64,000 bases of DNA, from the NCBI GenBank assembly GCA_964419675.1, contig CAYQPN010000004.1, forward strand, positions 11,001 through 75,000. The letters are read 5' to 3'. The position numbers and the translations under genes were made by a program. This DNA is from an uncultured Candidatus Saccharibacteria bacterium. GTDB lineage: Bacteria; Patescibacteriota; Saccharimonadia; Saccharimonadales; SZUA-47. The first letter of the stretch is position 1, and every line of letters begins with the position of its first letter. A model generated the notes under the pieces. It was given only the letters and a program-made list of their open reading frames with translations, ran no database searches and was not told the origin of the DNA. This document shows positions 2-64,000 of the stretch, in pieces.

Positions 2-649
2 TTTGTTGCAGGTTTGAGAGCGCTTTTGCGCCAAGACCCAAACATTATTATGGTAGGAGAAATTCGTGACGCCGAGACAGCAGGTCTTGGTGTTCAGGCA
101 GCACTTACAGGTCACCTCGTGTTCTCGACCCTACACACCAACAATGCCGCCACTTGCCTGCCTCGTTTACTGGATATGAATATTGAACCGTTCCTGATTG
201 CCAGTGTTGTACGGGTTGTTATTGGCCAGCGTCTGGTGCGCAGACTTGTTCCTGAAGATTGTCTAGAATATGTACCCACTGATGCAGAACGCAAAGAGAT
301 TGAACGCGTATTTAACATAAAGACAAAGGCTGACTGGGATAATCTTCTTGCACTTGTAACTCAGGCTCAAGAGTCGTTTGATAAACCAAAGTCCACAAAA
401 CTAACATTTTGGCGCCCCAAACCTGATTTACCAGAAGAAAAAACTGGATATAAGGGACGGATGGGAATATACGAAGTACTCAAAAATTCAACTGATATCC
501 AAAATTTGATAGTTAGTAACGCAACCAGCGAAGAACTTCAGGCAAGAGCCGTAGCAAATGGTATGCTTACCATGCAACTTGATGGGCTAATAAAAGCCTT
601 GATGGGCATGACAACTATAGAAGAAATACTTAGGGTAACAAGAGAATAA
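2..649 (+). CDS. pilB: Type IV pilus assembly ATPase, GspE/PilB family (C-terminal part; 5' end outside window)
   Basis: The frame is open to the window edge, and the ORF-track start at 14 is an internal TTG. It carries the IIMVGEIRD and [12 protein letters not shown] motifs of GspE-type ATPases. The stop lies 1 nt before pilC. Confidence 0.9.
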
Positions 650-650
650 T

Positions 651-1862
651 ATGAGATTTGCATATACTGCACTAGATGAGGCTGGAAAGAAAAAAACTGG
701 GTTTGTTGAGGCCAACGATCAAGCCGGCGCCCGAAACGCACTTATACGGCTGAGCTTGAAACCTGTAACAATCAAAAAGGCCGGCAGCTCTGGTGGGTTC
801 ATGGAGTTTCTCTCTAAGGGTGGAAAAGTTAAGCCAAAAGACTTGGTTATATTCACTCGCCAGTTGGCTACCATGATAAACGCTGGTGTCCCACTAGTTC
901 GAAGCCTTGCAACCTTAAATGCCCAAACAGAAAATCCGGCATTTAAAAAAATACTAACTCAGGTCAGCAAAGATGTTGAAGGTGGTATGGCTTTTGCCGA
1001 TGCCTTGGAAAAACATAAGTCTTCGTTTAACTCGATTTTTATAAATATGATTAGAGCAGGAGAAGCCGGCGGTATCTTAGACGAAATCTTAAAGAAATTA
1101 GCTGTCCAGCAAGAAAAAGATGCCGCCATACGCGCCAAGTTCAAGGGAGCAATGGTCTATCCTACAGTTCTTATTGGCATCACAGTTATAGTTTTTATTG
1201 CCTTGATGACCCTTGTAGTTCCAAAAGTTGGCACTATTATTGCTGATTTATCCACAGACGGAGAACTGCCACAAATGACCAAAGTTATGTTAGGTATAAG
1301 TGATTTCTTAATTGGATTTTGGTATATACACCTTAGCGTGGTTGTAGGTGGTAGTTTTCTGTTACGCCGATACATTAAAACAGACAAAGGCCGAAATAAG
1401 AAAGATGGCTTGATGCTTAAACTACCTGCTGTTAAAGTGCTGGTTACTAAGATGGCTGTTGCTAGATTCGCACGCATATTCGCATCTCTCATGGGTGCAG
1501 GAGTAAGCGTAATAGAATCAATTGAAATAACAGCCAAAGCAATTGGCAACTCAGTTATTGAAAAAGAGCTGATGGATGCAGCCAAAGAAGTATCTAATGG
1601 AGAACAGTTCAGCACTCCACTGTCCAGAAGCAAGATATTCCCGCCCATCGTGTCTCAAATGATGGCAATCGGTGAAGAAACAGGTCAAACAGATGATGTG
1701 CTTGTTAAGGTCGCAGACTTTTATGAGGAAGAGGTGGATGCAGCAGTAGAAGGCATGAGTTCAATCTTGGAGCCAATTTTAATTGTTGTCATGGGTGGAA
1801 TGGTTGGAGTTATTGCTGCTAGTGTTATCGGGCCTATTAGCGGTCTTGCCAAGCAAATTTAA
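651..1862 (+). CDS. pilC: Type IV pilus inner-membrane platform protein PilC (GspF family)
   Basis: This 403-aa protein has the duplicated GspF-domain architecture, including FTRQLATMINAGVPL and MMAIGEETGQ motifs and TM segments. It sits between pilB and the pilin gene. Confidence 0.9.
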   Translation: MRFAYTALDEAGKKKTGFVEANDQAGARNALIRLSLKPVTIKKAGSSGGFMEFLSKGGKVKPKDLVIFTRQLATMINAGVPLVRSLATLNAQTENPAFKKILTQVSKDVEGGMAFADALEKHKSSFNSIFINMIRAGEAGGILDEILKKLAVQQEKDAAIRAKFKGAMVYPTVLIGITVIVFIALMTLVVPKVGTIIADLSTDGELPQMTKVMLGISDFLIGFWYIHLSVVVGGSFLLRRYIKTDKGRNKKDGLMLKLPAVKVLVTKMAVARFARIFASLMGAGVSVIESIEITAKAIGNSVIEKELMDAAKEVSNGEQFSTPLSRSKIFPPIVSQMMAIGEETGQTDDVLVKVADFYEEEVDAAVEGMSSILEPILIVVMGGMVGVIAASVIGPISGLAKQI

Positions 1863-1881
1863 TAAAGTTGTTTAAAATTGC

Positions 1882-1910
1882 TTGACACTGACACAATATT
1901 TATAGATACT
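1882..1910 (+). promoter_or_regulatory. Candidate sigma70-type promoter for the pilin gene
   Basis: TTGACA (1882-1887), a 17-nt spacer and GATACT (1905-1910) lie about 70 nt upstream of the pilin ATG. An AAGGAGG Shine-Dalgarno sits at about 1964-1970. Confidence 0.35.
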
Positions 1911-1979
1911 TGATAAACATAAGCCCTATGAAACCAAGTAGGCTTACCTATATAACAATTAATAAGGAGGTGGGCTCCA

Positions 1980-2450
1980 ATGCTCAAACTAAATAGAAAA
2001 CAAAGTGGTTTTACAATCATCGAACTTTTGATTGTAATTGCAATCATTGGTATCTTGGCAACGTTAGTACTAACGAACTTCCAGGGTGCACAAGCGAAAG
2101 GACGAGATACTGTTCGAAAGAGCGATATCAACAGTCTTTATCAGAAACTAGAAGAATACTACAACGAGAATGGTACATATCCAAACGTGGCAGTAACATC
2201 AGCTAATGCATCAACATTATTCCCAGGAATAGACGCAGAAGCTGTTAAGGATGCTGATGGCGACGACATAAGTACTACATTCACAAACAGTACTACAGCC
2301 CCAGTACCAAACCCAGATACAAATACAGAATACATTCTAGGTCTTTACGGAACTGGATGTGTATCAACTGGTACATGTGACAAATATGTACTATCTGGAT
2401 TCCAAGAAACAGATACAGCAAACGACTACAATAAGAATAGCTTGAACTAA
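1980..2450 (+). CDS. Type IV pilin (prepilin with N-terminal methylation/cleavage motif)
   Basis: The N-terminus MLKLNRKQSG/FTIIELLIVIAIIGILA is a class III signal with G-1, F+1 and E+5. A C-terminal Cys pair is present (GTGCVSTGTC). Confidence 0.9.
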   Translation: MLKLNRKQSGFTIIELLIVIAIIGILATLVLTNFQGAQAKGRDTVRKSDINSLYQKLEEYYNENGTYPNVAVTSANASTLFPGIDAEAVKDADGDDISTTFTNSTTAPVPNPDTNTEYILGLYGTGCVSTGTCDKYVLSGFQETDTANDYNKNSLN

Positions 2451-2474
2451 CTAAAGCTAACTAGTATTGAAATC

Positions 2475-2508
2475 AGAGCGCTCTTTAAAATAAAGAGCGC
2501 TCTTTTCA
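2475..2508 (+). terminator. Rho-independent terminator after the pilin gene
   Basis: A 13-bp perfect stem (AGAGCGCTCTTTA/TAAAGAGCGCTCT) is followed by TTTT. Confidence 0.8.
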
Positions 2509-2578
2509 AATAAAAGTATTGGATACAACCAAGCTCAAATAAGTTATACTTATATTAAAGAGCTAACGCTTAATAATT

Positions 2579-3640
2579 ATGGCTATATTCTACACAGACA
2601 AACCAGTATTTGGATTCGACATTGGACGAAGCTCCATTAAAGCTATTCAGATTGACCAAATTGGTAAAAAGGCCGTAGTCAGTGGCTACGGTACTGTTTC
2701 GTTTGACCCAAAAGCCGTCGACAAAGGAGTCATTGTTGATCATGAAGTTATTATCAAAGCCGCATACGAACTATTGACCAAACAAATTGTCGGAAGGATA
2801 ACAACTAGAGACGTCGCTGTATCGCTTCCTAATGCCCATAGTTTCAGCCGGGTAGTTACTCTACCTAAAATGGACGGCAAGGACCTAGACGAAGCTGTTA
2901 CTGCTGAAGTCGACCAGTCCATACCATTGCCTATTGACGAGCTGTATTACGACTACAGTGTTGCTAGAGAGCTTGAGGACGGAAATATTGAAGTCCAGCT
3001 TGTTGCCTCTCCTAAAACAATCATTGAGTCTTATATGAAGGTTTTTAATGCTCTTGGGCTTAACGTCGCCCTGATTGAGTCAAATATTACGGCAATGACT
3101 CGTATAGTTGTTCATGCTGAAGCTCACGATGTTAACACGCTTATTGTAGACGTTGGATCCACTTCTTGTGACATGTCAATTTACGACGGCACAGCTATCA
3201 GAGCAACTGGAACGGTTGACTGCTCAAGCGAACGAATTACCCAAAATATTGCCGATAAGCTGGGCGTCAGTTTGCAACAAGCACACAGTATCAAAACCCG
3301 TTACGGATTAGATTCTAGTAAAAAACAAGACGAGATTATCAAAGCCACAGAACCAGAGCTAAACAAACTAGTTAACGAGATACGTAAGGTTATGCGCTAT
3401 TTCACAGACAGAGATAATACCAGCGGGCCTATCGGTCAAATTATTATTTTAGGCGGTGGCGCCAACTTGCCTGGTCTTAGTGGTTATATAACAAATAGAA
3501 CCCGTGTTGCAGCCAGGTTATGCGCCCCATGGAACAATCTCGATTTCGGAAAACTTCAGCCACCTCATGAACTAGAATCTACGCTATACACTACCGCAAG
3601 CGGGCTTGGCCTAGTTACTCCGCAGGAGATAGCAAGATGA
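2579..3640 (+). CDS. pilM: Type IV pilus assembly protein PilM (actin-like ATPase fold)
   Basis: This 353-aa protein has an FGFDIGRSSIKA N-terminus and an ILGGGANLPGL motif typical of PilM/FtsA-like proteins. It is followed by pilN. Confidence 0.85.
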   Translation: MAIFYTDKPVFGFDIGRSSIKAIQIDQIGKKAVVSGYGTVSFDPKAVDKGVIVDHEVIIKAAYELLTKQIVGRITTRDVAVSLPNAHSFSRVVTLPKMDGKDLDEAVTAEVDQSIPLPIDELYYDYSVARELEDGNIEVQLVASPKTIIESYMKVFNALGLNVALIESNITAMTRIVVHAEAHDVNTLIVDVGSTSCDMSIYDGTAIRATGTVDCSSERITQNIADKLGVSLQQAHSIKTRYGLDSSKKQDEIIKATEPELNKLVNEIRKVMRYFTDRDNTSGPIGQIIILGGGANLPGLSGYITNRTRVAARLCAPWNNLDFGKLQPPHELESTLYTTASGLGLVTPQEIAR

Positions 3641-4266
3641 TTAATTTGCTCCCAACTGACGAACTCGTAGAACGAAAGTATGGTAGACGCAACAAGATTC
3701 TGGCAAGTTACGTAGCTTACTTGTTAGTAACTGCTGGACTTGTTGCGTCAATACTTGTTGGCAGTTTACGTTTTGTTGGTTCTAACGAGCCACTTCTCCG
3801 TAAACAGCTGGAAGAGAATGAAGCGCAGTCAGCTATATTGGAGTCAAAAGTAGCGGAGTTGGGCAAAGTCACGCAACGCCTAACAACCACAAACAAACTC
3901 TTCGATAGTGCTATATCTTTCTCAGAACTTATCCCAAAGATAGGAAGTTTGTTGCCTCAAGGATCTATTCTTAACGGTTTATCATTAAATGGAGGCAAGA
4001 CTGATCCTTTATCACTTGAAGTTGATTTATACAGTGCTGATCTAGCTCCAATATTGCAAAGTAATTTAATAAACTCTGACCTGTTTGAAGCAGCTGACAT
4101 CAACTCAATTACGAGCATTGCTGACGATACTAGCGTTTATAAGTTTTCAGCATCTGTTTCAGCTAGTTTTACTGGATCAGCCGATGCAAAAAAGAAAATA
4201 GCAGCAGCAGCCGCAGCAGCAGAAGCAGCGGCAAAAGCAAAAACAGATTCAGGGAGCACTAAGTAA
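3637..4266 (+). CDS. pilN: PilN-like pilus assembly protein
   Basis: It has the MINLLP N-terminus and a single TM followed by a coiled coil. The start overlaps the pilM stop. Confidence 0.7.
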   Translation: MINLLPTDELVERKYGRRNKILASYVAYLLVTAGLVASILVGSLRFVGSNEPLLRKQLEENEAQSAILESKVAELGKVTQRLTTTNKLFDSAISFSELIPKIGSLLPQGSILNGLSLNGGKTDPLSLEVDLYSADLAPILQSNLINSDLFEAADINSITSIADDTSVYKFSASVSASFTGSADAKKKIAAAAAAAEAAAKAKTDSGSTK

Positions 4267-4841
4267 TGCGCGCTAAACAATTCTTTTTCGTAATGATAGC
4301 CTTTATTGCGTTGTCTATTGCAGCAGTCGCAGGATCGTTTGTATGGGGCAAAAATCTACTTCAGACAAGAGCTGCATCTGTATCAGATCTTGAAGCCGAC
4401 AGAGACATAGCCCAGGAGAAGATATTGATGTTACAGAAAGCGCAAAACGACTCAAAAAATCTAGAAAACGTAAAACAACTCTTAGACCGCCTACTTCCAA
4501 CTGGTAAAGAACAGGACAAGCTTGTAGCAGATATTATATATACTGCAACTTCTCAAGCTGGCATACCGTTTTCTAAAGTAAAGTCATTTTCGTTTAGTGG
4601 GGGTACCGATCCGGACAGTTTGTCTGGGACAGTAATTTCAAAAGAGAACCCTGGTGTTTACGAATACCCTTTTTCTCTTCAAATTAACGATATTAGCTAT
4701 GAGACCTTGCTAAAACTATTAACCGAAATAGAAACTAATGGTAGGATAGTTCAAGTTGCTAATATACAGATTGCCCCGAGTGCAGAAGATCCAAATATAT
4801 TAGTAGTCAGCTTATCAATGAAAGCGTATTTACAACCATGA
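4266..4841 (+). CDS. pilO: PilO-like pilus assembly protein
   Basis: It has an N-terminal TM followed by a coiled coil. The call rests on its position after pilN and a start that overlaps the pilN stop. Confidence 0.55.
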   Translation: MRAKQFFFVMIAFIALSIAAVAGSFVWGKNLLQTRAASVSDLEADRDIAQEKILMLQKAQNDSKNLENVKQLLDRLLPTGKEQDKLVADIIYTATSQAGIPFSKVKSFSFSGGTDPDSLSGTVISKENPGVYEYPFSLQINDISYETLLKLLTEIETNGRIVQVANIQIAPSAEDPNILVVSLSMKAYLQP

Positions 4842-5155
4842 ACGATCAAATAAAAGAACTCACATCAAAAATTACTAAAAAAATTGGGCCCCTAAGCTCT
4901 TTTATGGCTAGACACAGATTTATATTAGTATTTTTAGTTGCTTGTGGGGTAATTCTAATAACCCTATTGCAAACCAGAATCTACACTAATCCGGAGAGAA
5001 ACGACGCTAGATTTGAAACTGGAAAGTCTGCGATAAATGTATTCACGATAGATCAAGATATTGTCGATAAACTTAGTAAAACTTCCGAAGATCAAAACAT
5101 TGAAGTTGATCAGAGCCTTGTTCCTAACCGCAATAACCCCTTCATTGAACAGTAG
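4838..5155 (+). CDS. Small membrane protein, last gene of the pilus operon (function unknown)
   Basis: This 105-aa protein has one TM. Its ATG overlaps the pilO stop (ATGA). I recognise no family. Confidence 0.5.
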   Translation: MNDQIKELTSKITKKIGPLSSFMARHRFILVFLVACGVILITLLQTRIYTNPERNDARFETGKSAINVFTIDQDIVDKLSKTSEDQNIEVDQSLVPNRNNPFIEQ

Positions 5156-5746: not shown

Positions 5747-6787
5747 TTATAGCAGTTTTTCTTGAGAAGAGCTGTTAGATTTTGGCTTTATGTCCATGTG
5801 CTGATAGGCCCTACTTGTTACTTTTCTACCTCTCGGTGTCCGTTCTAAAAAGCCTATTTGCATCAAATACGGTTCATAGAAATCTTCAACCGTACTAATT
5901 TCATCACCCAAGACTGCAGCTAACGTGTTTAAACCCACAGGTCCACCAGCATGATTTTCAATAATCGCTCGAAGTAACATTCTGTCAGCAGGGTCTAATC
6001 CCATTTTATCTACTTCAAGTAACTCTAGTGCTTTATCCGTAACCACGTCATCAATTATTCCATCACCGTTTACGTCGGCATAATCCCGAACTCTCTTTAG
6101 TAGTCGGTTAGCAATTCTTGGCGTGAGTCGTGACCTTGTTGATAATACTTCTGCAGCATTCCCTTTTAGCTCAGAGCCAAGTATTTTGGATGACCGTTTA
6201 ATAATTGAAGCAATTTCTTCCGGTTTATAGTATTCAAGTCTGTGCAACATGCCAAAACGGTCCCGTAAAGGCGCTGCTAGCGCTCCAGTACGGGTTGTAG
6301 CCCCTATTAAAGTAAACTTAGGCACATCAAGCCGTAAACTCCGTGCACTAGGCCCTTTGCCAAGCATTATATCAATTGCGTAATCTTCCATTGCAGAATA
6401 AAGAACTTCTTCGACAGAACGGTTCAAGCGGTGAATTTCATCAATAAACAACACGTCACCTTCACCCAGGTTTGTAAGTATGCTAGCTAAGTCTGCGGCG
6501 CGATCAATTGCGGGCCCGCTCGTTACGCGTATTTGTGCGCCCATTTCGTTAGCAATAATACTGGCAAGGGTAGTTTTACCAAGTCCTGGTGGGCCGTAAA
6601 GCAAAATATGGTCTAGTGGTTCAGCGCGTTTTTTAGCAGCCTGAATCGCTAGCTGTATATTTTGTTTTATTCTCTCCTGACCAATCCAGTCGCCAAAACT
6701 TGTCGGCCTTAGAACATTCTCGATCCGTTTCTCTTCTTCGTCTGGAGCATCATCCTGCGCAGGATTAACAATTCTTTCAATCGCCAT
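5747..6787 (-). CDS. ruvB: Holliday junction branch migration ATPase RuvB
   Basis: It has Walker [10 protein letters not shown], the DEIHRL motif and overall RuvB colinearity. Confidence 0.97.
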
Positions 6788-7362
6788 TATTTTTTCACCC
6801 TCAGAGCTTCTTTCACGCGTTCGCTGGTTGAAAGTTTAGGGTCTACACCACGCAAAAGTTGGACGGCATCTTGGGCATTATGGCCTAGAGCAGTTAACGC
6901 CTCTACGGCTTCGTCAGTGACTGCAAAATCACCTAAGAAGTCTGTAGCGTTGTCACTGGCTTCTAGCCCAACCTTGTTTTTCAAATCGACGACAGCCCTC
7001 TCAGCCACCTTTTTACCGACGCCTTTGGCTGCTGATATAAACTTAGTGTCCCCGCTAGCAATAGCCGAACGAACTTGGCCCTCTGACCCGACATTCAAAA
7101 TTGCCATTGCTGCTTTTGGTCCAACCCCGTTAACACTTATCAGAAGTCCGAACAGTTGCCGGCGCGATTTTGCACTAAAACCAAATAGTTCATGTGCATC
7201 TTCTTTTATCTGCTCAGCGATATACAGATTACACTTTGTTCCAAGAGATAGCTTTTGTTGTTCATCAAAACAAACTTGCACACCGTAACCCACGCCTCCA
7301 CAATCCACAATAACCTGTGAACCCTCGTGCTCAATAACTTCTCCGGTTAATCTTGCAATCAT
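6787..7362 (-). CDS. ruvA: Holliday junction DNA helicase subunit RuvA
   Basis: It has the [10 protein letters not shown]-terminus and HhH motifs ([19 protein letters not shown]). It is adjacent to ruvB. Confidence 0.95.
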
Positions 7363-7392
7363 ACCTACAGTTTACAGTATAGTTGCGAGAGT

Positions 7393-7872
7393 TTATAGTT
7401 TAGCGCTAACCCCGTTAGCAAGATGTGTAAGTGCGCAGGCCAGAGCGTCGGCACAATCGTCTGGCTTTGGTTTAGTTTTAAGTCCTAATTGCACCCGTAC
7501 CATTTCTTGAATTTGCGCCTTTGTGGCTCGCCCGTAACCTGTCATTGCCATTTTAATTTGCAGGGGGGTGTATTCATAAATCGGTATGCCAGCCTCAGCA
7601 AGAGCCAGCAAAATTACTCCGCGGGCCTGTGATACCTTCATGGCAGTAGTCACGTTTTGAGCAAAAAACAGTTTCTCGACAGACGCTGCATCGGGTTTAA
7701 ATTCTTGAACCAGCTCTTTCATAGATTCATATAGATCAACCAAGCGACTTGCATCATCATCACCAATAATTGTCCTAATTACTCCTGCGTCGAGTAGTTT
7801 AGGATTAGATTTTTTCTCTATCAACCCAAAACCAATTATTCCTGAGCCTGGATCAATGCCTAGTATTTTCAT
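7393..7872 (-). CDS. ruvC: Crossover junction endodeoxyribonuclease RuvC
   Basis: It starts MKILGIDPG, has RNase H-like fold motifs and is the length of RuvC. Confidence 0.93.
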   Translation of the reverse strand: MKILGIDPGSGIIGFGLIEKKSNPKLLDAGVIRTIIGDDDASRLVDLYESMKELVQEFKPDAASVEKLFFAQNVTTAMKVSQARGVILLALAEAGIPIYEYTPLQIKMAMTGYGRATKAQIQEMVRVQLGLKTKPKPDDCADALACALTHLANGVSAKL

Positions 7873-10146: not shown

Positions 10147-10154
10147 ATTTTATT

Positions 10155-10309
10155 TGGAGGGCCCGATGAGACTCGGTCACCTCTGGCGACCCCTAAACTA
10201 CATTTTTCAAAACAAGTTTTGAAGAGTAGGTTTCCTTGCGAAATGCCACCGGCATTTCTCACTCATGACACCGAATGTGTCGTGACTTGAATCTCATCTG
10301 GAGTCGACC
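10155..10309 (-). repeat. Family A element, copy 1: 5'-truncated tRNA-Lys copy with an 85-nt three-hairpin module in its T-loop
   Basis: Segment 10155-10175 equals the tRNA-Lys 3' 21 nt (21/21). Segment 10261-10272 equals the tRNA variable loop plus 5' T-stem (12/12). The module at 10176-10260 is shared with the copies at 31837, 38975 and 39228. Confidence 0.75.
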
Positions 10310-10337
10310 AAAAATAAAACCGTCCTTTTGGGACGGT
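10310..10337 (-). terminator. Rho-independent terminator directly after tRNA-Lys
   Basis: The stem ACCGTCC/GGACGGT is followed on the minus strand by TTTTATTTTT. Confidence 0.75.
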
Positions 10338-10345
10338 GCTATTTT

Positions 10346-22585: not shown

Positions 22586-23314
22586 TCATAGTTTTTCTAT
22601 CTCTTGTTCATATTCCGATAAGACTTCTGCTGCTTCTACTAACTGAGCAATGCTGAGGGGCTTCCCCTTAACTATCTCATCAACTGCTTCAGCTGCTTCG
22701 TGATACTCGTGGTTAATTACAACTTTTATTCTGGGGTCATTTTTAGCAAGCTTAATAACTTTCTTTGCCGTCTCTACTCGATTATTAAACTCTGTCCTTG
22801 ATATTTCTTCGCGTCTGCTGAAACGATCAAGCCAAATTTTAAACGTTGACGGAAGTATAGCAATAACAACTGCTTCAGGATTTGCTCCAAGTATATTTAG
22901 TGCCCCACCAAACTCTACTTCATTAATACCAATTTTATTTTCAGCCGCAACTTTCTCAAGCTCTCTAATGCTAGTGCCGCTAACCTGTTGGCCGTGTATT
23001 AGTTCTGCCTCTAAAAACTCTCCTCGCTCTAAATCTGATAAAAAGTCTTCTTCCTTCCTGAAGTAGTAGTTACTGCCATGGGTTTCCATTAATCCGTCTC
23101 TTAGCTTAGGGGGTCTAGTTGTATCTGACACAACCTGTATATAGCCTTTATTTTTTACTAAAAAGTTTATTATTGTGTTTCGTCCTGCGGCTGCGGGCCC
23201 AATTAGAACAACATATTTTACGTTTCTTAAGACTTTTTTGGCATGCTCAGAAATTTTGTATGATGCTAGAGTTGCTTCAAATTTTTGTTTATTTCTTAGT
23301 ATTACTTCGTTCAT
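22586..23314 (-). CDS. Guanylate kinase-like P-loop protein (divergent)
   Basis: It has P-loop GPAAAGRNT and an SDTTRPP...YYF motif resembling the Gmk S.TTR...Y.F pattern. It also has extra N- and C-terminal extensions. Confidence 0.6.
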   Translation of the reverse strand: MNEVILRNKQKFEATLASYKISEHAKKVLRNVKYVVLIGPAAAGRNTIINFLVKNKGYIQVVSDTTRPPKLRDGLMETHGSNYYFRKEEDFLSDLERGEFLEAELIHGQQVSGTSIRELEKVAAENKIGINEVEFGGALNILGANPEAVVIAILPSTFKIWLDRFSRREEISRTEFNNRVETAKKVIKLAKNDPRIKVVINHEYHEAAEAVDEIVKGKPLSIAQLVEAAEVLSEYEQEIEKL

Positions 23315-23355: not shown

Positions 23356-24048
23356 CTAGACAGACTCATCACCGATACGTTCTAGGATAATGTCGGCTGT
23401 GTCTCTGGCCAGTTGGGCGCGGTGCTGATCAACCGGCTGATTATTCATAATTGCTTTTACTTCGTTCACGGCCAGTTCTAGCGTGTCATTTAATACAAAA
23501 TAATAGCTATCATCTTGAAGTGAAAGTAGTATTGACTGGCGAGCTTCATCGATGCGCGCAAGCAAATCGCGAGACCTAACACCGCTAATTCTTCGCATCC
23601 ATTCAATATAACTTGGGGGCATTAAATAAATATTTTTAACTGACCTAAACCCAAGACTTTTGAATTTAGGGATAACACCTGCAAGGATTGCCATTACGCA
23701 TAAACCTGACTCAGGATAGGCAGAAAGCCTGGTCCCGTAAAATTCGCCTGTTGGGGCCTGCAAGAATTGGACATATTCACCATTTTTAACTTCATCAATT
23801 ATTTTAAGATAGTCGTTTCTGAAATGATAAGTAATGCTACTGTGTAGCTCGTCTGGTCTCTGTTCCCTTGTAACATCGCTCATAACGTAAGGTATCCCTA
23901 GCTCAGTAATTACAGTAGATTTACCAACCCCGGTTGGCCCAACAAGAGCAACAAGGTCAATGTTTGCAAGTTGATTAAGGGTCGCTTCAGACGGTACGTA
24001 TGAGTCTTGTAGCTTCTCAACCCATTCAATAAAATCTTTTTTGTCCAC
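23356..24048 (-). CDS. Guanylate kinase-like P-loop protein (divergent paralogue)
   Basis: It has P-loop GPTGVGKST and an SDVTRE...YHF motif. It has a GTG start and sits in tandem with 22586-23314. Confidence 0.6.
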   Translation of the reverse strand: MDKKDFIEWVEKLQDSYVPSEATLNQLANIDLVALVGPTGVGKSTVITELGIPYVMSDVTREQRPDELHSSITYHFRNDYLKIIDEVKNGEYVQFLQAPTGEFYGTRLSAYPESGLCVMAILAGVIPKFKSLGFRSVKNIYLMPPSYIEWMRRISGVRSRDLLARIDEARQSILLSLQDDSYYFVLNDTLELAVNEVKAIMNNQPVDQHRAQLARDTADIILERIGDESV

Positions 24049-24080
24049 TAAACTTATTGTACCAGTAAAATATCTGTAAG

Positions 24081-24131
24081 TTAGTCACGTTTTAGTAAAA
24101 CGGTGAAGGCCTCGGCCGGTAGGTCTACTTT
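24081..24131 (-). repeat. Displaced duplicate of the lepA 3' end (last 16 codons plus stop)
   Basis: It matches 24218-24268 at 50 of 51 positions. The single difference is a synonymous Thr codon change (ACC versus ACA). Confidence 0.9.
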
Positions 24132-24217
24132 ATCAGAGTATAAGACACCCCTTCGGGGTTTCTCATCACGCAGGCCACGGAATAAATCCGATGGTCTGGC
24201 TGCTCTTCCCGAAGCAG
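24132..24217 (-). repeat. Family B element, minus orientation, between the two lepA 3'-end copies
   Basis: The minus strand reads GGGAAGAGCAGCCAGACCATCGGATTTATTCCGTGGCCTGCGTGATGAGAAACCCCGAAGGGGTGTC. Confidence 0.75.
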
Positions 24218-25999
24218 TTAGTCACGTTTTAGTAAAACTGTGAAGGCCTCGGCCGGTAGGTCTACTTTGCCGAACTTTTTAAGGCGTTCTTTACCTTTTT
24301 TCTGCTTGGCTAGAACTTTCTTTTTTCTAGATACATCACCACCGTATAACCCAGTTGTTACGTCTTTTCTGAAGGCGCTAATGTCCTCTCGTGCAATAAA
24401 TTTACCGCCCAATGCGGCCTGAACCGCCACTTGAAAGTTTTGACGCGGTATAACGTCTTTCAGCTTCTTGACAACGTCTCGTCCAACGCTGTTGGCTTCA
24501 CTTCTATGAACCATAATACTTAGAGCATCAACTCTGTCGCCCGCAACGTAAAAATCAAGCTTTACCAAATCTTCTACTCTATAGTTATCTAGCTCGTAAT
24601 TAAAACTGCCATATCCGCTTGTTAGACTTTTTAATTGGTCATAAAAATCTGTTAACAGGTTGGCAAGCGGTGCCTCAAAAGTAACAAGCGCCAATTGTGC
24701 ATCTACATAGCCTAGATTTTTTTGTAAACCTCGTTTACTAACAATCAACTGAATAATAGCCCCAACATATTCTTTGGGACAAACCACTTCACCTTTAATC
24801 CATGGTTCACGAATCTCGGTAATTTTACTTACGTCCGGCAAACTACTGGCTGATTTAACATCAATTTCTTCTCCGCTACTCAGTAAAACTTCATAGTCCG
24901 TGCTGGGATTTGTTACTACTAAATCAAGGTTATACTCTCGCTCTAAACGCTCTTTAATAATGTCCATGTGGAGCAACCCTAAGAAACCAATGCGAATCCC
25001 GAAGCCTAAAACTGGTGAATTTTCTGGCTCGTATTGCAAAGCAGAATCACTCAAACTTAATCTGTCAATCGCCTCTTTAAGGGCGATGTAATTTTCGTTA
25101 CTATCTGGGAAAAACCCGGCATACACAAAAGGCTTAACGATTTTATAGCCGGCAAGAGCTTCAACAGCAGGAGCGTTGGTTAGAGTTACGGTGTCACCAA
25201 CTCGAGCTTCGCGGGTGCTTTTCAAGTTAGTTACAATATATCCAATCTCCCCTGTTTTTAAGTCTGTATTGGCCTTCATATCTGGGCGTAATGCACCCAC
25301 TTCTAGCGCAAGTCCATTAGTGTTGGAGCTAATCATATGAATTCCGGCGCCTTTTTGGACATGACCGTCAATGATACGCACGTAGAGAATAACTCCACGG
25401 TAATCGTCATAGTAGCTATCAAAAATTAGACCTCTGGTTGGCTTGTCACTAGTACCTTTTGGCTCTGGTACAAGTGCAATTACACTGTCCAGAACTGATT
25501 CAATACCAATCCCGGTTTTTGCACTTATCAGCAATATATCTTCTTTTTTGCATCCAAGCAGGGAAATAACTTCTGAACTTACACGCTCTACGTCAGCGGC
25601 CGGCAAATCGATTTTATTTAGAACAGGAATAATCGTTAAGTCGGCTGCAATTGCTAGATAAACATTGGCTAGAGTCTGCGCCTGAATGCCTTGAGAAGCA
25701 TCAACAACTAAAATTGCGCCCTCGCAAGCCTCAAGGCTTCGCGATACTTCATAGCTGAAATCCACATGACCTGGAGTATCAATCAAGTTCAGCTCGTAGC
25801 CTTTATAGTCCATTCTTACCGGCGCTAGTTTAATGGTAATTCCCTTTTCGCGCTCCAAATCCATTTTGTCTAGCATCTGTGCTTTCATATCGCGCTTTTG
25901 CACAGTTCCGGTAATTTCCAATAGCCGGTCAGCCAAAGTAGACTTACCATGATCGATATGCGCAATAATGCAGAAATTTCTAATTTTTTCTTGACTCAT
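24218..25999 (-). CDS. lepA: Translation elongation factor 4 (LepA)
   Basis: It has the GTPase motifs IIAHIDHGKST and DTPGHVDF and the LepA-specific C-terminal domain. Confidence 0.97.
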   Translation of the reverse strand: MSQEKIRNFCIIAHIDHGKSTLADRLLEITGTVQKRDMKAQMLDKMDLEREKGITIKLAPVRMDYKGYELNLIDTPGHVDFSYEVSRSLEACEGAILVVDASQGIQAQTLANVYLAIAADLTIIPVLNKIDLPAADVERVSSEVISLLGCKKEDILLISAKTGIGIESVLDSVIALVPEPKGTSDKPTRGLIFDSYYDDYRGVILYVRIIDGHVQKGAGIHMISSNTNGLALEVGALRPDMKANTDLKTGEIGYIVTNLKSTREARVGDTVTLTNAPAVEALAGYKIVKPFVYAGFFPDSNENYIALKEAIDRLSLSDSALQYEPENSPVLGFGIRIGFLGLLHMDIIKERLEREYNLDLVVTNPSTDYEVLLSSGEEIDVKSASSLPDVSKITEIREPWIKGEVVCPKEYVGAIIQLIVSKRGLQKNLGYVDAQLALVTFEAPLANLLTDFYDQLKSLTSGYGSFNYELDNYRVEDLVKLDFYVAGDRVDALSIMVHRSEANSVGRDVVKKLKDVIPRQNFQVAVQAALGGKFIAREDISAFRKDVTTGLYGGDVSRKKKVLAKQKKGKERLKKFGKVDLPAEAFTVLLKRD

Positions 26000-26085: not shown

Positions 26086-26172
26086 GCAGATGTCCTAAGG
26101 GAAAAGAGCAGCCCAAGCGTCGGATTCATTCCGCGCGTGGCTTTGGCGAGAAAAACCGCAGGTTTGTCTCAG
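26086..26172 (+). repeat. Family B element, plus orientation, 17 nt from the murJ stop
   Basis: It reads GGGAAAAGAGCAGCCCAAGCGTCGGATTCATTCCGCGCGTGGCTTTGGCGAGAAAAACCGCAGGTTTGTC. Confidence 0.7.
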
Positions 26173-26188
26173 TTGTGTATCACAGAGG

Positions 26189-31825: not shown

Positions 31826-31962
31826 GGTGAGATTTGCCCACGTTCCGCGGGCCCAGAATTTTCATGCGTCGAACAAGTTCGACCCTGAAAAGTTCTCTTG
31901 CGAAATGCCACTGGCATTTCTCACTCGCGACTTTTCGGCGTTCAAATTTACTACTAGTTACC
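31825..31962 (-). repeat. Family A element, copy 2 (downstream of tRNA-Met; 3' tRNA-like end truncated at a CDS stop)
   Basis: The module is at 31837-31922. ACTCGCGAC (31923-31931) equals the tRNA 5' T-stem region at 32019-32027. GTGAGATTTG (31827-31836) equals tRNA positions 32008-32017. Confidence 0.7.
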
Positions 31963-31996
31963 AAAATAAAATCACCCTAGAAGGGTGACCTTATTT

Positions 31997-33845: not shown

Positions 33846-33929
33846 CTGCGATCAAGACAAAACCCGAAGGTTATATCTATGATGCGCGGGACAGTGAAAT
33901 AAATTCCCTGTTCCGGCTGTTCTTTTTCC
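33846..33929 (-). repeat. Family B element, minus orientation, inside a ~700-bp AT-rich spacer
   Basis: The minus strand reads GGAAAAAGAACAGCCGGAACAGGGAATTTATTTCACTGTCCCGCGCATCATAGATATAACCTTCGGGTTTTGTC. Confidence 0.7.
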
Positions 33930-34370
33930 TTTTCAGGAATAGAACAACTCAAGCATTCTCCTTTCTTATTGTTTTTTTGTTTTTTAATTTTAGTTGTGTA
34001 CTTGACTAGTATTACACAACTTTTGATGGGTTGCGAGCAGTTTTTTGTTTTTATTTTTGTAATATTTACAATAAACTACTCGTCCCCTTCAAAACTTTTA
34101 TTTTTTTGTTGATTTTTGTTTCTTGTCCCGTAATTGAGATTTCTCATTTTTCGGGGTATCAACTGAACATTATTATAGCTTATGCTTTTTATTTTGTCAA
34201 TACTATTTTAAATTATGCTATAGCTTTTGTATTTCATTTGTGTTTTAATTAACAGTGCAAGAGTATTTAAAGAGTGAGTAGTATCATAGAACAACAAATC
34301 GAAGTTACACACCCCTTTTTTAAGCTGGTCGAATTGCCTAAAGAAATTAAAAAAGAGGAAGTCTAACAAT

Positions 34371-38896: not shown

Positions 38897-38930
38897 AGAA
38901 TAAAGTCTCACATTTATGTGGGGCTTTTTT

Positions 38931-39083
38931 CTTGGTAATGTGCCAAGGCTAGAGCCTGGCCTAAGGTCACAGGTGAAAAGTGCCATTCGGCACTTTGCAA
39001 GAGAATCTTTCAGTATACAAACTTGTTTGTAACTTGAAAGTTCTGGGCCCGCGGCACGTGGGCGAGTCCTGGTCCCGCTACCA
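38931..39083 (+). repeat. Family A element, copy 3: 5'-truncated tRNA-fMet-like copy with an 88-nt module in its T-loop
   Basis: Segment 39063-39083 equals the tRNA 3' 21 nt (21/21). Segment 38964-38974 equals the tRNA variable loop plus 5' T-stem (10/11). The module is at 38975-39062. A pseudo-anticodon arm, AGGCT-AGAGCCT-GGCCT, is at 38946-38962, and its own terminator is at 39094-39121. Confidence 0.75.
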
Positions 39084-39206: not shown

Positions 39207-39326
39207 TGGCGAATTACCATCTTTCCTGGCCACATTCTGCGGCCCCGAAACTTCATGACAGAAAACTAGTTTTCTTCAGAAGATTTCCTTGCAATGAGCC
39301 ACTGGCTCATTTCACCCGCTACCAAG
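39207..39326 (-). repeat. Family A module, copy 4 (inverted relative to copy 3), flanked by a third partial copy of the tRNA-fMet 3' end
   Basis: The module at 39228-39314 aligns over its full length with the other copies and has covarying stems. CCCGCTACCAAG (39315-39326) equals tRNA-fMet 38887-38898. Confidence 0.65.
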
Positions 39327-39384
39327 CATAAGAAATACAGCTTCCGAAAGGAAGTCATTTCTATTTGTTTGATATGATGAGGGT

Positions 39385-43768: not shown

Positions 43769-43896
43769 TGGTGGGGGTACCTGGACTTGTCATAATTTGC
43801 TCGCTCGAGAGCGCAAGCGCATCTCGCTCAGCCAAGCACAGAAAACTCATCCGCCTTGGGCGGATTCGACCCAAGGGTTCAAATCTTCTACAACCT
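43769..43896 (-). repeat. Divergent family A-like element downstream of tRNA-Ile2, ending in a duplicate of the tRNA 3' 21 nt
   Basis: Segment 43769-43789 equals 43934-43954 (21/21, C56 to CCA). The interior has a GAGA-GCG-CTTG-CGC-TCTC hairpin and a T-arm-like CCTTGGG-TCGAATCCG-CCCAAGG. Its own terminator is at 43739-43762. Confidence 0.6.
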
Positions 43897-43933: not shown

Positions 43934-44628
43934 TGGTGGGGGTACCTGGACTTGAACCAGGGACCAATCGGTTATGCGTACCACTACAGCTTTTGCTGCC
44001 TCTTTCGTGTTTGTGGTCTGGACTGTCTCTTTATCCGCGTATTTGCGGATACTTGCCATACAGTCTCTACACCTTACCAGCTTTTTTATAAACTGGGCTT
44101 GGCTCGGGATTACCACTCAGCCAGTTGGCGGATAGAGGCTTCCCCGAATTTGACAAGATATACTTACTGGTTACCCATGTAAGCAGCCCTTTAACTTTTT
44201 GACTTATCTATAGTATACTTCGGTTATGAAGAACAGGTCTAACTGTGCCGTGTGTAATAAAATTCTATCCGGCAAACAAACATTGTTCTGCTCCGTGAAA
44301 TGTAAAAATACACAGCACCAATCATACCCTGCTCAAAAAAAGCGCGGATTAAATCGAAAACTCTATTTTATAAGAGAGTTAGGAGGAAAATGTTCTATCT
44401 GCGGATATGCAAAAAATATTTCTGCACTGGCATTTCACCACATACACGGTAAAGAATTTCAACTAGATGTTCGTGCACTATCAAACCGTAAAATTGAACC
44501 TATACTTGAAGAGGTCGCAAAATGTAAGTTATTGTGCAATAACTGCCACGCTGAAATTCATAACCCAAATCTAGACTTAGCCAAATTGTTAATTGAGCCG
44601 ACTGCTCTAACCACTGAGCTATACCCCC
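43934..44628 (-). tRNA. tRNA-Ile2-like (anticodon CAU) interrupted by a group I intron in the anticodon loop
   Basis: Exon 1 (44628-44596) reads GGGGGTATAGCTCAGTGGTTAGAGCAGTCGGCT. Exon 2 (43976-43934) reads CATAACCGATTGGTCCCTGGTTCAAGTCCAGGTACCCCCACCA. Joined, they form a perfect cloverleaf closely resembling E. coli tRNA-Ile2. Confidence 0.88.
43977..44595 (-). mobile_element. Group I intron (IC3-like core) in the tRNA anticodon loop
   Basis: The minus strand contains GTCAAATTCGGGGAAGCC, CCCGAGCCAAGCCC and AAGGTGTAGAGACTGTATGGCA. These match P3/P7-region strings of the Azoarcus tRNA-Ile intron as I recall it. The 5' exon ends in U and the intron ends in G. Confidence 0.8.
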
Positions 44629-56025: not shown

Positions 56026-56065
56026 TATACACATATTATACGCTATAGCGTATAATATGTGTATA
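56026..56065. repeat. Perfect 40-bp palindrome (copy 2 of 4), overlapping the divergent promoter region
   Basis: It reads TATACACATATTATACGCTA|TAGCGTATAATATGTGTATA. TATAAT at 56051-56056 lies 33 nt upstream of the 56090 ATG, and a mirrored TATAAT on the minus strand faces the mazG-like operon. Confidence 0.95.
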
Positions 56066-56686: not shown

Positions 56687-56710
56687 AGCTCTTTCTTAAC
56701 GATCCACTAA

Positions 56711-56746
56711 TACACATATTATACGCTATAGCGTATAATATGTGTA
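56711..56746. repeat. Perfect 36-bp palindrome (copy 3 of 4) between convergent genes
   Basis: It reads TACACATATTATACGCTA|TAGCGTATAATATGTGTA, starting 25 nt after the stop of 56090-56686. Confidence 0.95.
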
Positions 56747-61703: not shown

Positions 61704-61902
61704 GATTCTATCCTCAAATTTAGTTTGTAATTGTTCGGCTTTTTCGACGGGTCTTTTGCCAAGTAAGAAGTAGCTCGCCAAAAACTACCGGCGGACCCGA
61801 CTATTCATATTATTTTGCACGACAATTGTTTTCACTCCTGTTATTGTACCATCAACCGGATATAACTAGTGCAAATTTCAGCATTCTAGCATAAGAACTA
61901 CC

Positions 61903-61938
61903 TACACATATTATACGCTATAGCGTATAATATGTGTA
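61903..61938. repeat. Perfect 36-bp palindrome (copy 4 of 4) between the CNNM-family gene stop and aspS
   Basis: It reads TACACATATTATACGCTA|TAGCGTATAATATGTGTA. Confidence 0.95.
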
Positions 61939-63732: not shown

Positions 63733-63831
63733 TTAGTAGAACTAAAAAAAGAGCTCTCGCAAGGGCTCTCTTTCCCTATTCCCAGTGTATTGCCTGGGAA
63801 GAGTAGCCGGAACTAAAGTCTTGTACCGCCT

Positions 63832-63910
63832 GCAGCCAAGGAAAAAGAGCAGTCCGAGCGACGGATTTATTCCGCACCCGGCACGCCTTGAGGAAAACCG
63901 TCGGTTGTCC
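63832..63910 (+). repeat. Family B element, plus orientation, near window end
   Basis: It reads GGAAAAAGAGCAGTCCGAGCGACGGATTTATTCCGCACCCGGCACGCCTTGAGGAAAACCGTCGGTTGTCC. A partial 5' motif, GGGAAGAGTAGCC, lies at 63796-63808. Confidence 0.7.
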
Positions 63911-64000
63911 TAAAAAGCGTAGTACTTAGTACGTTATAAACGTTTGCCACTTAGGGCGCCTTACAGTAACGGCCACCTTTTGGGACCTTCCACGAGCAAC

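Follow-up and report, generated by a model that had tools for sequence, protein, structure and literature searches.

The stretch of DNA analysed here (the window; 64,000 nt of contig CAYQPN010000004.1, positions 11,001 to 75,000 of the forward strand, from the uncultured Candidatus Saccharibacteria assembly GCA_964419675.1) carries a small structured repeat, referred to below as family B, at the 3' end of lepA, where it is bracketed by two nearly identical copies of the end of that gene. The lepA gene encodes elongation factor 4 and is intact, occupying 24218..25999 of the minus strand (593 amino acids in the list of open reading frames; Pfam GTP_EFTU 1.2e-57, LepA_C 4.3e-42 and EFG_C). Its final 16 codons, its stop codon and the 2 nt beyond form one arm of a direct repeat (24079-24131 and 24216-24268), the arms of which are 53 nt long, identical at 52 of the 53 positions and spaced 137 nt from start to start. 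The arm at 24216..24268 (minus strand) is contiguous with the lepA body, ends in TAA and is the working copy; the arm at 24079..24131 (minus strand), which reads KVDLPAEAFTVLLKRD* without a gene body, is termed the relic. Both arms encode KVDLPAEAFTVLLKRD followed by a stop codon, and their sole mismatch, ACA/ACC, with A in the lepA arm and C in the downstream arm, is synonymous. A preliminary description of this DNA had reported lepA ends matching at 50 of 51 positions, with this single synonymous difference; the near-identity is real and slightly longer than was claimed, and the difference is confirmed by the sequence.

The insert between the two arms measures 84 nt (24132..24215, minus strand; 86 nt under a 51-nt definition of the repeat) and consists of a 5-nt linker, GCTTC, a core and an 8-nt linker. 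It matches the family B covariance model with 82.2 bits (E 3.8e-18), is absent from the orthologous sites of two relatives and folds as two hairpins (folding z = -3.9). A 5' purine tract, GGGAAGAG, followed by an invariant CAG, lies at 24203..24210 (minus strand) and is defined by invariant alignment columns. Hairpin H1 (24170..24200, minus strand) is a three-tier helix with the conserved loop GGATTTATTCC, and hairpin H2 (24140..24166, minus strand) has the lower stem ATGAGA/TCTTAT, an A.G mismatch and a variable upper stem, ACCCC/GGGGT; both are assigned from folding and covariation. Downstream of the relic is a guanylate-kinase-like gene (23356..24048, minus strand; Pfam Guanylate_kin), the junction of which was compared with those of L121 and L123 (loci of other genomes are cited by such numbers). 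Two guanylate-kinase-like paralogues in fact stand side by side 3' of lepA, at 22586-23314 and 23356-24048, both on the minus strand. The paralogue adjoining the relic has a weak Pfam match (26.8 bits) and a GTG start, which lies about 30 nt past the relic stop codon in the window, compared with 8-10 nt past the lepA stop codon in relatives with an empty site.

Filled and empty sites

The covariance model was run on 80 lepA loci taken from metagenomes. Like all of our comparative data, these are metagenome-assembled contigs with simple calls of open reading frames, and the orthology of sites was inferred from flanking genes. In the closest relative (L119), with a LepA 92% identical to that of the window, the element directly follows lepA and the duplicated end is 54 nt long; the same arrangement, with a duplicated end of 68-69 nt, is found in a distant relative (L180, 75% LepA identity). 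L121 and L123 (87 and 86% LepA identity, respectively) have the common downstream gene, the start of which is 8-10 nt from the lepA stop codon, and their junctions contain neither the element nor the duplication. The preliminary description had claimed an insertion at the 3' end of lepA, and these clean empty sites in relatives with 86-87% identical LepA bear it out. The same description had held that a duplication lacking the element would speak for a simple tandem duplication; no such case was found among the 47 lepA loci that could be placed, nor did a generic repeat scan of the 80 loci and the window reveal any lepA duplication without the element. Apparently 'extended' lepA matches in L120, L122, L161, L174 and L183 are not duplications.

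Duplicated flanks are not confined to lepA. Direct repeats of 14-56 nt (score at least 11) flank 20 of 108 copies (about 19%), against 0 of 108 when the right flank was reversed as a control; these and all other counts by copy refer to the matches listed in the genome scan described below. The repeats reach 68-72 nt under a softer extension penalty, and about 80% of the copies have no detectable flanking repeat. The proposal in the preliminary description was made to depend on whether family B copies elsewhere associate with duplicated ends, and on this point it stands. Nearly all of the repeat-flanked copies lie at very tight junctions, where the gene end carries the ribosome-binding site of the next gene or overlaps its start, and others lie at the first 10-20 codons of a gene; the genes with duplicated ends include lepA, dnaJ, dnaX, truB, a GTPase gene and the rfbB/rfbC junction. 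The element is sense-oriented at 10 of the 12 duplicated gene 3' ends, and the intact gene is on the 5' side of the element in 18 of 23 cases, corresponding to 13 of 18 independent sites (p about 0.1).

The left repeat is often set apart from the element by 5-35 nt, which are unrelated or have diverged. The ends of the element, GGGAAAAGAG... and ...GTCTCATTAC, are not reverse complements, so no terminal inverted repeats are present, and 23800-24500 contains no inverted pairs. Neither microhomology at the junctions of the perfect-repeat sites, nor a target motif at the repeat boundaries, nor a 3' tail on the element was found. Close direct repeats are otherwise rare: 542 kb of Saccharibacteria sequence chosen irrespective of the element contained nine, six of which are duplicated gene 3' ends around a small structured insert, three at lepA and three at tRNA genes of the window.

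Structure and distribution of family B

Family B elements are about 75-85 nt long and comprise a purine tract, a three-tier hairpin with a GGATTYATTCC loop and a second hairpin (consensus GGGAAAAGAGCAG-CCCGAGCGNCGGATTYATTCCGCGCCCGGCG-CGATGAGAAAAACCGTAGGTTTGTCTCAT(TAC)); a (GC) mini-hairpin of the GGCGAAGCC type extends about one third of the copies. The covariance model was built from 102 members, and covariation was assessed in the alignment of these 102 sequences. Paired bases occupy 92.7% of the helix cells, against 36-55% in controls with slid partners, compensatory cells number 216, against 48 +/- 5.5 in shuffles, and double changes occur at 15 of the 22 base pairs. Helices 1 and 2, which make up H1, are 91-97% paired with double changes at 8 of 12 pairs, and helix 3 (H2) is 91.5% paired with double changes at 7 of 10. 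That both helices are real is strongly supported by this alignment, as the preliminary description had anticipated. The GTC that it had listed as a separate motif after the 3' hairpin belongs instead to the conserved lower stem of H2 (GAUGAGA...UCUCAU, with the A.G mismatch).

The purine tract and H2 vary together. In 73 of 91 scorable copies (rho 0.79), the 5' tract has one A residue more than the 3' strand of H2 has T residues, and copies with GGGG tracts carry GAGAGGGG/CCCCTCTC hairpins. From this coupling, the tract would either pair with the 3' strand of H2 in an alternative helix that includes G.U pairs or lie on H2 as a purine third strand; in the form of such a triple or alternative helix, the coupled tract and hairpin may be part of the spreading mechanism. 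Mismatches in the helices are G.T in 45 cases and A.C in 41. This near equality is unlike most functional RNAs and fits a structure at the DNA level or a constraint on both strands, the strand test being either uninformative or against a typical RNA.

The preliminary description did not recognize the element, and no Rfam family fits it: the five window copies have no match in Rfam 15 at gathering thresholds, and no family appears at E<=0.5 over the whole window. At E<=10, C/D-box snoRNA matches of 12-18 bits occur in 24000-24350, but these are chance matches to UGAUGA/CUGA in one copy. By-eye comparison with the motifs of hammerhead, HDV-like, twister and pistol ribozymes, group II domain 5, retrons and SRP RNA yielded no fit, in agreement with Rfam. 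A stop codon as the 5' end of the element was likewise rejected (T-AA/AG/GA 42, C-AA/AG/GA 36). Within the copies there is no consistent sigma-70-like promoter or intrinsic-terminator signal, with one weak promoter-like match in the lepA copy only. The literature that we searched contains no description of such elements in Saccharibacteria or Patescibacteria. Family B is apparently an undescribed family of small, structured, protein-less DNA elements that occurs throughout Candidatus Saccharibacteria.

Searching the window with the covariance model, with filters off, recovered exactly five copies with 53-82 bits (next best match 15.6 bits), and the 29-nt core pattern has 0.02 expected chance occurrences. 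The four copies besides that at lepA that had been claimed earlier (13344-13431, 26086-26172, 33846-33929 and 63832-63910) are thus real. The second copy (13344..13431, plus strand; 63.9 bits) is an 88-nt insert antisense to dnaJ (13432..14538, minus strand; Pfam DnaJ, DnaJ_C and CXXCXGXG), and it too is bracketed by a duplicated gene end, which had been overlooked. This consists of the last six codons and stop codon of dnaJ: the working end (KKGWFK*, 13432..13452, minus strand) and the relic (KKDWFK*, 13323..13343, minus strand) form a 21-nt direct repeat with 20 of 21 positions identical, a spacing of 109 nt and one non-synonymous difference. The other three copies have no flanking repeat. 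The third (26099..26174, plus strand; 74.5 bits) lies between murJ and lepA, antisense to both, and a copy in L192 matches it in position and orientation relative to lepA; the fourth (33850..33931, minus strand; 53.1 bits), the most divergent, lies between convergent genes; and the fifth (63840..63913, plus strand; 74.9 bits) lies about 100 nt 3' of a DsbA-like gene.

A genome scan with the exact pattern, using one genome per species, listed at least 118 matching places. Among the matches listed, about 104 are full elements, nearly all from Candidatus Saccharibacteria/Saccharimonadales or unclassified Patescibacteria metagenome-assembled genomes, and the other 14 are chance matches in other phyla without the rest of the element; all 114 covariance-model matches are full length. 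From this distribution, a Saccharibacteria origin of the window is very probable. The copy density is uneven, with five copies in the 64 kb of the window (about one per 13 kb) compared with five in 473 kb of related lepA loci. The copies of one genome are as diverged from each other as copies of different genomes, and family B has no match in 2.9 million viral contigs. Orientation relative to neighbouring genes is mixed (about 35 copies co-directional, 21 antisense and 20 between convergent or divergent genes), and directly 5' of tRNA genes 15 copies are co-oriented versus three opposed. On its 3' side the element typically reaches to within 15 nt of the next feature, and on its 5' side it is about 80 nt away from the preceding one; the 12 nt 5' of the element contain no conserved motif. 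A copy is also found directly 5' of a 16S rRNA gene (L061:303-433), where AGAGTTTGATCCTGGCTCAG begins about 25 nt later, and further copies lie just 5' of rplK-like and rplJ-like genes.

Some copies carry additional sequence. Between GATGA and hairpin 2, a structured domain of about 85 nt is present in L045 (about 1849-2060) and L071 (about 6729-6930), with the shared motif TATATGCnGAACC...GCGTGAAGCyATAGA, and a GGGTCCCC...GGGG insert occurs within the hairpin 2 loop in L023, L113 and L117; these modules could be mini-elements nested in the copy or domains that are optional. A few nucleotides 5' of the purine tract, an additional GCAG or AAGAGCAGCC fragment stands in L095 (about 5960-6000, AAGAGCAGCCctGCAGCCAAGGGAAAAGAGCAGCC), in L091 and in the window at 63830-63850 and 13344-13361. 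Such fragments may be footprints of earlier copies at the same site.

Differences between the repeat copies

The two copies of the gene 3'-end repeats show 27 differences in total, 26 of which are synonymous (stop-codon changes included) and one non-synonymous. Random change would be expected to be about 22% synonymous; for a target duplication with a neutral relic, P is about 3e-5 even with half of the changes on the constrained copy. In the L043 repeat there are ten synonymous differences in 19 codons and all 19 residues are identical. The relics also follow their own genome: relic and working lepA end agree at 50 of 51 and 45 of 51 positions within genomes and at 37-41 of 51 between genomes. 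The relic tracks its own working copy even in amino-acid replacements, and it does likewise at the rfbB/C, truB and L043/L098 sites. The boundaries of the repeats are identical for the window and L119 and for L025 and L054 and differ by 3 nt at truB (L039/L102), while the L098 repeat is much shorter than the L043 repeat. As the boundaries are mostly common to sites of different genomes, we take these to reflect largely one event per site rather than recurrent insertions with random stagger.

In L119 and L180, all of the repeat differences fall in the last five or six codons beside the element. The working copies of both end in GAC TAG TTTT, and their relics end in GAT TAA, as at empty sites. 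This patch looks like the product of a crossover within the repeat that joined a foreign gene end plus element to the resident gene. At duplicated gene 5' ends, the ATG of the relic is the original one, and the start and ribosome-binding-site region of the working copy is another, only about 65% similar, resembling orthologous non-coding DNA from another genome. Other repeats are perfect, namely those in L053 (22-38 nt; 38/38), which lie inside coding sequence and restore no gene end, and that at a gene 5' end in L074.

The preliminary description had offered two origins for the duplicated lepA end. A 51-bp target duplication is insufficient alone, since the 26:1 synonymous ratio would not be accounted for, and a plain target-site duplication would not be enough at these sites in general. 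Carriage of the gene end by the element is favoured, at least in part, by the patch in L119 and L180. A diversity-generating retroelement was considered and rejected: the mismatch at lepA does not fall on an adenine of the template copy, every base is affected at other sites, the gene concerned has a housekeeping role and no reverse transcriptase is encoded in the window. The lepA genes of the window and L119 agree at only 37% of their fourfold-degenerate sites, which amounts to saturation, and between genomes saturated at neutral sites family B is about 80% conserved at the orthologous site, with compensatory changes. This suggests a host function, which would be compatible with either transfer by recombination or transposition.

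An in-frame copy in a MutY-like gene

In four genomes, a gene for a MutY-like HhH-GPD glycosylase contains the element in frame and translated, as an insert of about 25 amino acids, GKEQPETRIHSAPGAMRKTVGLSHY (L020:785-1678, L033:5799-6668, L056:3277-4188 and L070:6538-7410). The insert lies between ...TLP... and ...R(E/L)WYWALMDYG, and the homologues are of two lengths, about 272 and about 297 amino acids, with the insert at one fixed alignment position. Many Saccharibacteria have such an insert in this glycosylase. Its DNA is exactly GGAAAAGAGCAG...CTCATTAC, about 75 nt, without any duplication. In-frame remnants of both element ends are found in L199 and L200 and none in L201. Because the remnants are in frame, L201 is empty and no duplication is present, the insertion is, as judged from these alignments, an old one that is decaying by in-frame deletions. 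It is the one clear in-frame site among the 108 copies; a profile of the element-encoded peptide, searched against 5.8 billion proteins, matched only spurious open reading frames of 33-83 amino acids from intergenic copies.

Insertion and mobility of family B are supported by several comparisons: the filled and empty lepA sites, the lack of any duplication without the element, the flanking repeats of 20 of 108 copies against none in the control, the uneven copy density and the in-frame, remnant and empty states of the MutY-like gene.

The tRNA-linked family T

A second element, family T, is distinct from family B and follows tRNA genes. It is about 125 nt long with three hairpins, is not in Rfam and has the core ...GAGTGAGAAATGCCnGTGGCATTTCGCAAGrrAAC...AACTTGTT...GGGCCCGCGGnACGTGGG. 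The order is that of the tRNA, its own terminator, the element, a copy of the tRNA 3' end from the T-loop and a second terminator. In the window (10153-10343, 31826-31996, 38897-39083 and 39283-39327) it follows the gene for tRNA-Lys and two for tRNA-Met, another form follows a tRNA gene with an intron, and the relic begins in the T-loop each time; the copied 3' ends comprise 23 of 23 nt for tRNA-Lys and 21-22 nt for tRNA-Met. Other genomes carry family T at L035:5030-5136, L112:3073-3162, L022:3034-3126, L004:4401-4491 and L085:3523-3635. A 23/23-nt copy of the tRNA-Ala 3' end is present in L035, and in L112 and L022 it is the 5' half of tRNA-Ala that is copied (28-31 nt), with the intact tRNA gene downstream. 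In L004, the two tRNA-Pro 3' ends are distinguished by a compensatory change in the T-stem, so that the second comes from another functional allele. In L085, an H1-like GGATTTATTCC hairpin is joined to the T element; families B and T therefore share modules.

The intron-containing tRNA gene of the window is on the minus strand and is split by a group I intron (Rfam, 44004-44211(-), 76 bits); ARAGORN did not detect it. A second copy of its 3' end (CAAGTCCAGGTACCCCCACCA) lies 165 nt downstream (43769-43789 and 43934-43954), and the repeat brackets a terminator and a structured insert of 144 nt, which is the family T layout with a different insert.

Possible mechanisms of spread

The account that we hold the most probable, although we would stop just short of giving it an even chance, is that family B is a protein-less structured element whose filled alleles are spread and refreshed by homology-anchored recombination rather than by classical transposition. 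At lepA, its point of entry would have been the stop codon, with the next gene 8-10 nt away, and the last 53 nt would thereby have been doubled, the upstream copy completing lepA and the downstream copy being the resident end, left as a relic. A segment with the element and the adjacent conserved gene end would pair with the homologous gene of a competent recipient and would cross over within the gene end, on the 5' side of the element; the 3' junction would be non-homologous or would fall within the repeat, in a single-crossover, Campbell-like or homology-facilitated illegitimate event. Filled alleles would then pass among relatives via ordinary homologous recombination. Both repeat copies would be repeatedly overwritten from working gene ends, which would make them coding-like and genome-specific, and recombination between the repeats could remove the element again.

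We infer the recombination route, its polarity and the role of transformation from several lines of evidence. The 26:1 synonymous ratio, the relic that follows its own working copy and the patch within the repeats of L119 and L180 all argue for recombination. So do the flanked genes (lepA, dnaJ, dnaX, truB, the rfb genes and tRNAs), which serve housekeeping functions and are highly conserved, the second tRNA-Pro end of L004 from another functional allele, and the 5'-end relics that keep their ATG beside working start and ribosome-binding-site regions of about 65% similarity. The lack of junction microhomology and of terminal inverted repeats points the same way, as do the proteins encoded nearby. 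Pfam annotation of the approximately 68 open reading frames of the 64 kb window revealed no transposase, reverse transcriptase, integrase or HUH nuclease, nor was there a RAYT-like gene in the window, and it did reveal a type IV pilus gene set, RuvABC and a PIF1-like helicase. The pilus genes encode a PilB-like ATPase fragment, PilC, a pilin with the N-methylation motif, PilM and PilO, and together with the adjoining ruvA, ruvB and ruvC they occupy 14-5155 and 5747-7872. The pilus and ruv genes fit a capacity of this organism for DNA uptake and recombination. Natural competence and the integration of DNA by homologous recombination are documented for Saccharibacteria (PMC10633639), which again favours the recombination account. 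Our literature search further indicates that homology-facilitated illegitimate recombination, a one-sided and homology-anchored process, is established in transformable bacteria. It was reportedly described in such bacteria by de Vries and Wackernagel in 2002.

Nevertheless, several points weigh against this account. The donor-type allele, with lepA followed by the element and no repeat, was seen in none of 81 lepA loci, and the perfect repeats of 22-38 nt in L053, which restore no gene end, have the look of mechanical duplications of the target. The usual outcome of homology-facilitated illegitimate recombination is that recipient DNA is replaced or deleted rather than duplicated, the single-crossover variant would require a very small circular or looped intermediate that has never been observed, and recombination anchored in one gene could not explain the arrival of the element at new genes. 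The polarity drops from 18 of 23 cases to 13 of 18 independent sites (p about 0.1) and is only suggestive. The approximately 80% conservation of the element, with compensatory changes despite saturation, is a sign that the element itself is under selection, and no such constraint is predicted if it is purely selfish. In addition, all of the data come from metagenome-assembled contigs with crude gene calls.

An enzyme encoded elsewhere could alternatively move the element by transposition or retroposition, with long and variable staggered cuts that leave duplications of 14-72 bp, as in the target-primed reverse transcription of short interspersed nuclear elements (SINEs); compact genomes would then keep only the insertions that restore a gene end, and the synonymous pattern would arise later from allelic recombination or gene conversion. 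Although we consider this unlikely, it is a serious competitor. It accounts readily for repeats that are variable in length and abut the element, for the perfect 38/38 repeats in L053, in coding sequence with no end regenerated, and in L074, at a gene 5' end, for the absence of junction microhomology and for the uniform layout at four tRNA genes of the window, where the relic always starts from the T-loop; covarying helices would also suit a single-stranded DNA or an RNA intermediate. However, 64 kb contain no reverse transcriptase, transposase or integrase, no viral contig matches, and the element has no terminal inverted repeats, A-tail or 5'-truncated copies. The in-frame MutY insertion lacks a duplication, as do about 80% of the copies as far as can be detected, and copies within a genome are as diverged as those between genomes, so that there was no recent burst. 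The 26:1 ratio and the GAC-TAG-TTTT patch in two genomes require extra assumptions, and the common repeat boundaries at orthologous sites are not those of recurrent insertion with random stagger. Less probable still is that family B is in the first place a functional cis-acting module, such as an RNA processing or stability signal, a cistron insulator or a DNA structural site, that is selected at junctions, with mobility being secondary and the duplications kept by selection so that the upstream gene end and the downstream gene signals both survive. Such a module would explain the approximately 80% identity with compensatory changes at an orthologous site where fourfold sites are saturated, conservation across the whole phylum, the coupling of 5'-tract length to H2 (73/91, rho 0.79), which implies a defined fold, the optional extra domains at fixed points, the recurrent sites 5' of tRNA (15 co-oriented versus three), 16S rRNA and ribosomal-protein genes and the sense orientation in 10 of 12 gene 3'-end duplications. 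It is difficult to reconcile with the mixed orientation (about 35 sense and 21 antisense), including antisense copies in operons such as that of dnaJ, with G.T and A.C mismatches in the ratio of 45 to 41, unlike typical functional RNAs, with a copy that is merely translated within a protein and decays by in-frame deletions, with close relatives that lack the element at the identical junction, and with the lack of a consistent promoter or terminator signal or of any Rfam match.

Two further explanations carry far less weight. Duplication of a gene 3' end is typical of integrase-mediated integration, and the tRNA cases, with 21-23-nt repeats from the T-loop, resemble the tRNA-integrating islands reportedly reviewed by Williams in 2002, so that the repeats could be attL and attR and the 84 nt the scar left after an interior deletion. 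We regard this as very improbable: one element of 75-85 nt stands beside many genes with a repeat from each, which a single attP cannot achieve, the window has no integrase, most copies are free of repeats, and for five tRNAs the intact gene and the copy are identical, which a crossover in a T-loop core would not give. The idea of a replication-slippage tandem duplication or an assembly artefact unrelated to the element draws on the ability of hairpins to stall replication and promote slippage, and it is effectively refuted. The duplication never occurs without the element (47 scorable lepA loci and the generic scan of 80), the layout recurs in assemblies made independently, those of L119, L180 and some 20 further loci, close repeats are generally scarce (nine in 542 kb) and the element itself is not duplicated.

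Relation to known elements

The closest counterparts in their way of working are the Rickettsia palindromic elements (RPEs), hairpin repeats without a transposase that are sometimes translated in frame. RPEs have no inverted terminal repeats and move by a mechanism that is not known; they are found between genes and in frame within conserved genes, where the peptide is tolerated, and occur throughout the lineage (PMC10969869). The tolerated peptide of about 25 residues in the MutY-like glycosylase is RPE-like, but it represents one site in 108 copies. RPEs are about 100-150 bp long and nearly half lie in open reading frames, whereas family B elements are about 75-85 nt and the host phylum is unrelated. 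We know of no long gene-end duplications flanking RPEs. Repetitive extragenic palindromes (REPs) and the bacterial interspersed mosaic elements built from them (BIMEs; REPINs) are also extragenic multi-copy palindromes that occur in both orientations, often in operons or at gene 3' ends; they have covarying stems, presumably move as single strands and are associated with RAYT (Y1 HUH) transposases. REPs are about 20-40 nt long, carry a conserved GTAG 5' of their one hairpin, are each confined to a species or genus and are not known to produce a target duplication. Family B differs in its two or three hairpins and purine tract, its invariant GAGCAG instead of GTAG, its phylum-wide range and its long flanking repeats.

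[quoted passage not shown] Their hallmarks are terminal inverted repeats and fixed, short target duplications, typically of 2-10 bp, set by a parent insertion sequence (IS); family B has neither, and its repeats vary between 14 and 72 bp. Palindromes derived from IS200/IS605 insert 3' of a fixed tetranucleotide or pentanucleotide without duplication, whereas family B has no upstream motif and about 19% of its copies have long repeats. Elements that integrate with a tyrosine integrase also leave direct repeats of the target 3' end and regenerate the gene on one side, but they use one attachment site, encode the integrase and carry kilobases of cargo, whereas family B has many targets, an 84-nt length and repeats copied from each target. 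SINEs and long interspersed nuclear elements (LINEs) show variable target duplications of tens of base pairs, in the SINE case around a small, structured, non-coding element. The repeats of family B are variable as well, but they are often set off from the element by 5-35 nt and their differences are not those of neutral relics; family B has no tail, no 5' truncation and no reverse transcriptase in the window. To our knowledge, SINE/LINE-type elements do not occur in bacteria. A further parallel comes from fungal and algal organelles, where Paquin, Laforest and Lang reportedly described in 1994 an endonuclease insertion in Allomyces atp6 as a mobile cassette with a replacement C-terminus for the gene. 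Such cassettes, inserted at the 3' end of an essential gene, bring their own gene end and leave the native one as a relic downstream, with mainly synonymous differences owing to the different genomes of origin, which matches the patch in L119 and L180 and the 26:1 ratio. They encode a homing endonuclease, which drives the insertion, whereas family B is bacterial, has 84 nt and no open reading frame, and affects many genes, including their 5' ends.

It is conceivable, although somewhat doubtful in so general a form, that the ultra-small, naturally competent Saccharibacteria harbour protein-less mini-elements that use conserved gene ends as homology anchors (protein genes for family B and tRNAs for family T), with a cassette that brings a replacement end while the native end stays, or else an enzyme with staggered cuts of 20-70 bp; either would be undescribed in bacteria. 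A large part of the uncultivated diversity of bacteria belongs to Saccharibacteria and other Patescibacteria, whose genomes are usually called streamlined and poor in mobile DNA. Here, a conserved family of structured repeats occurs across the group in the tightest junctions, duplicating the ends of essential genes and tRNAs and once lying within a DNA-repair protein. If the recombination-anchored account is true, selfish DNA would persist without a transposase or spare space via natural transformation, a process usually thought to purge mobile elements. The elements are also natural markers for recombination and strain typing in these organisms.

Gene calls and other repeats

Copies of the element affect annotation, in that they cause spurious gene calls of 38-42 amino acids and misleading 'extended' homology at gene ends. 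Public gene callers place 'hypothetical proteins' of 33-83 amino acids on intergenic copies. The register that reads GAG-CAG is open across the first 24 codons in 87 of 111 copies, which is why we consider these 33-83-residue genes to be probably spurious.

The window also contains a 37-nt near-perfect palindrome, ATACACATATTATACGCTATAGCGTATAATATGTGTA, in four intergenic copies that are 95-100% identical (11215-11251, 56027-56063, 56710-56746 and 61902-61938); this is possibly an operator or another repeat family.

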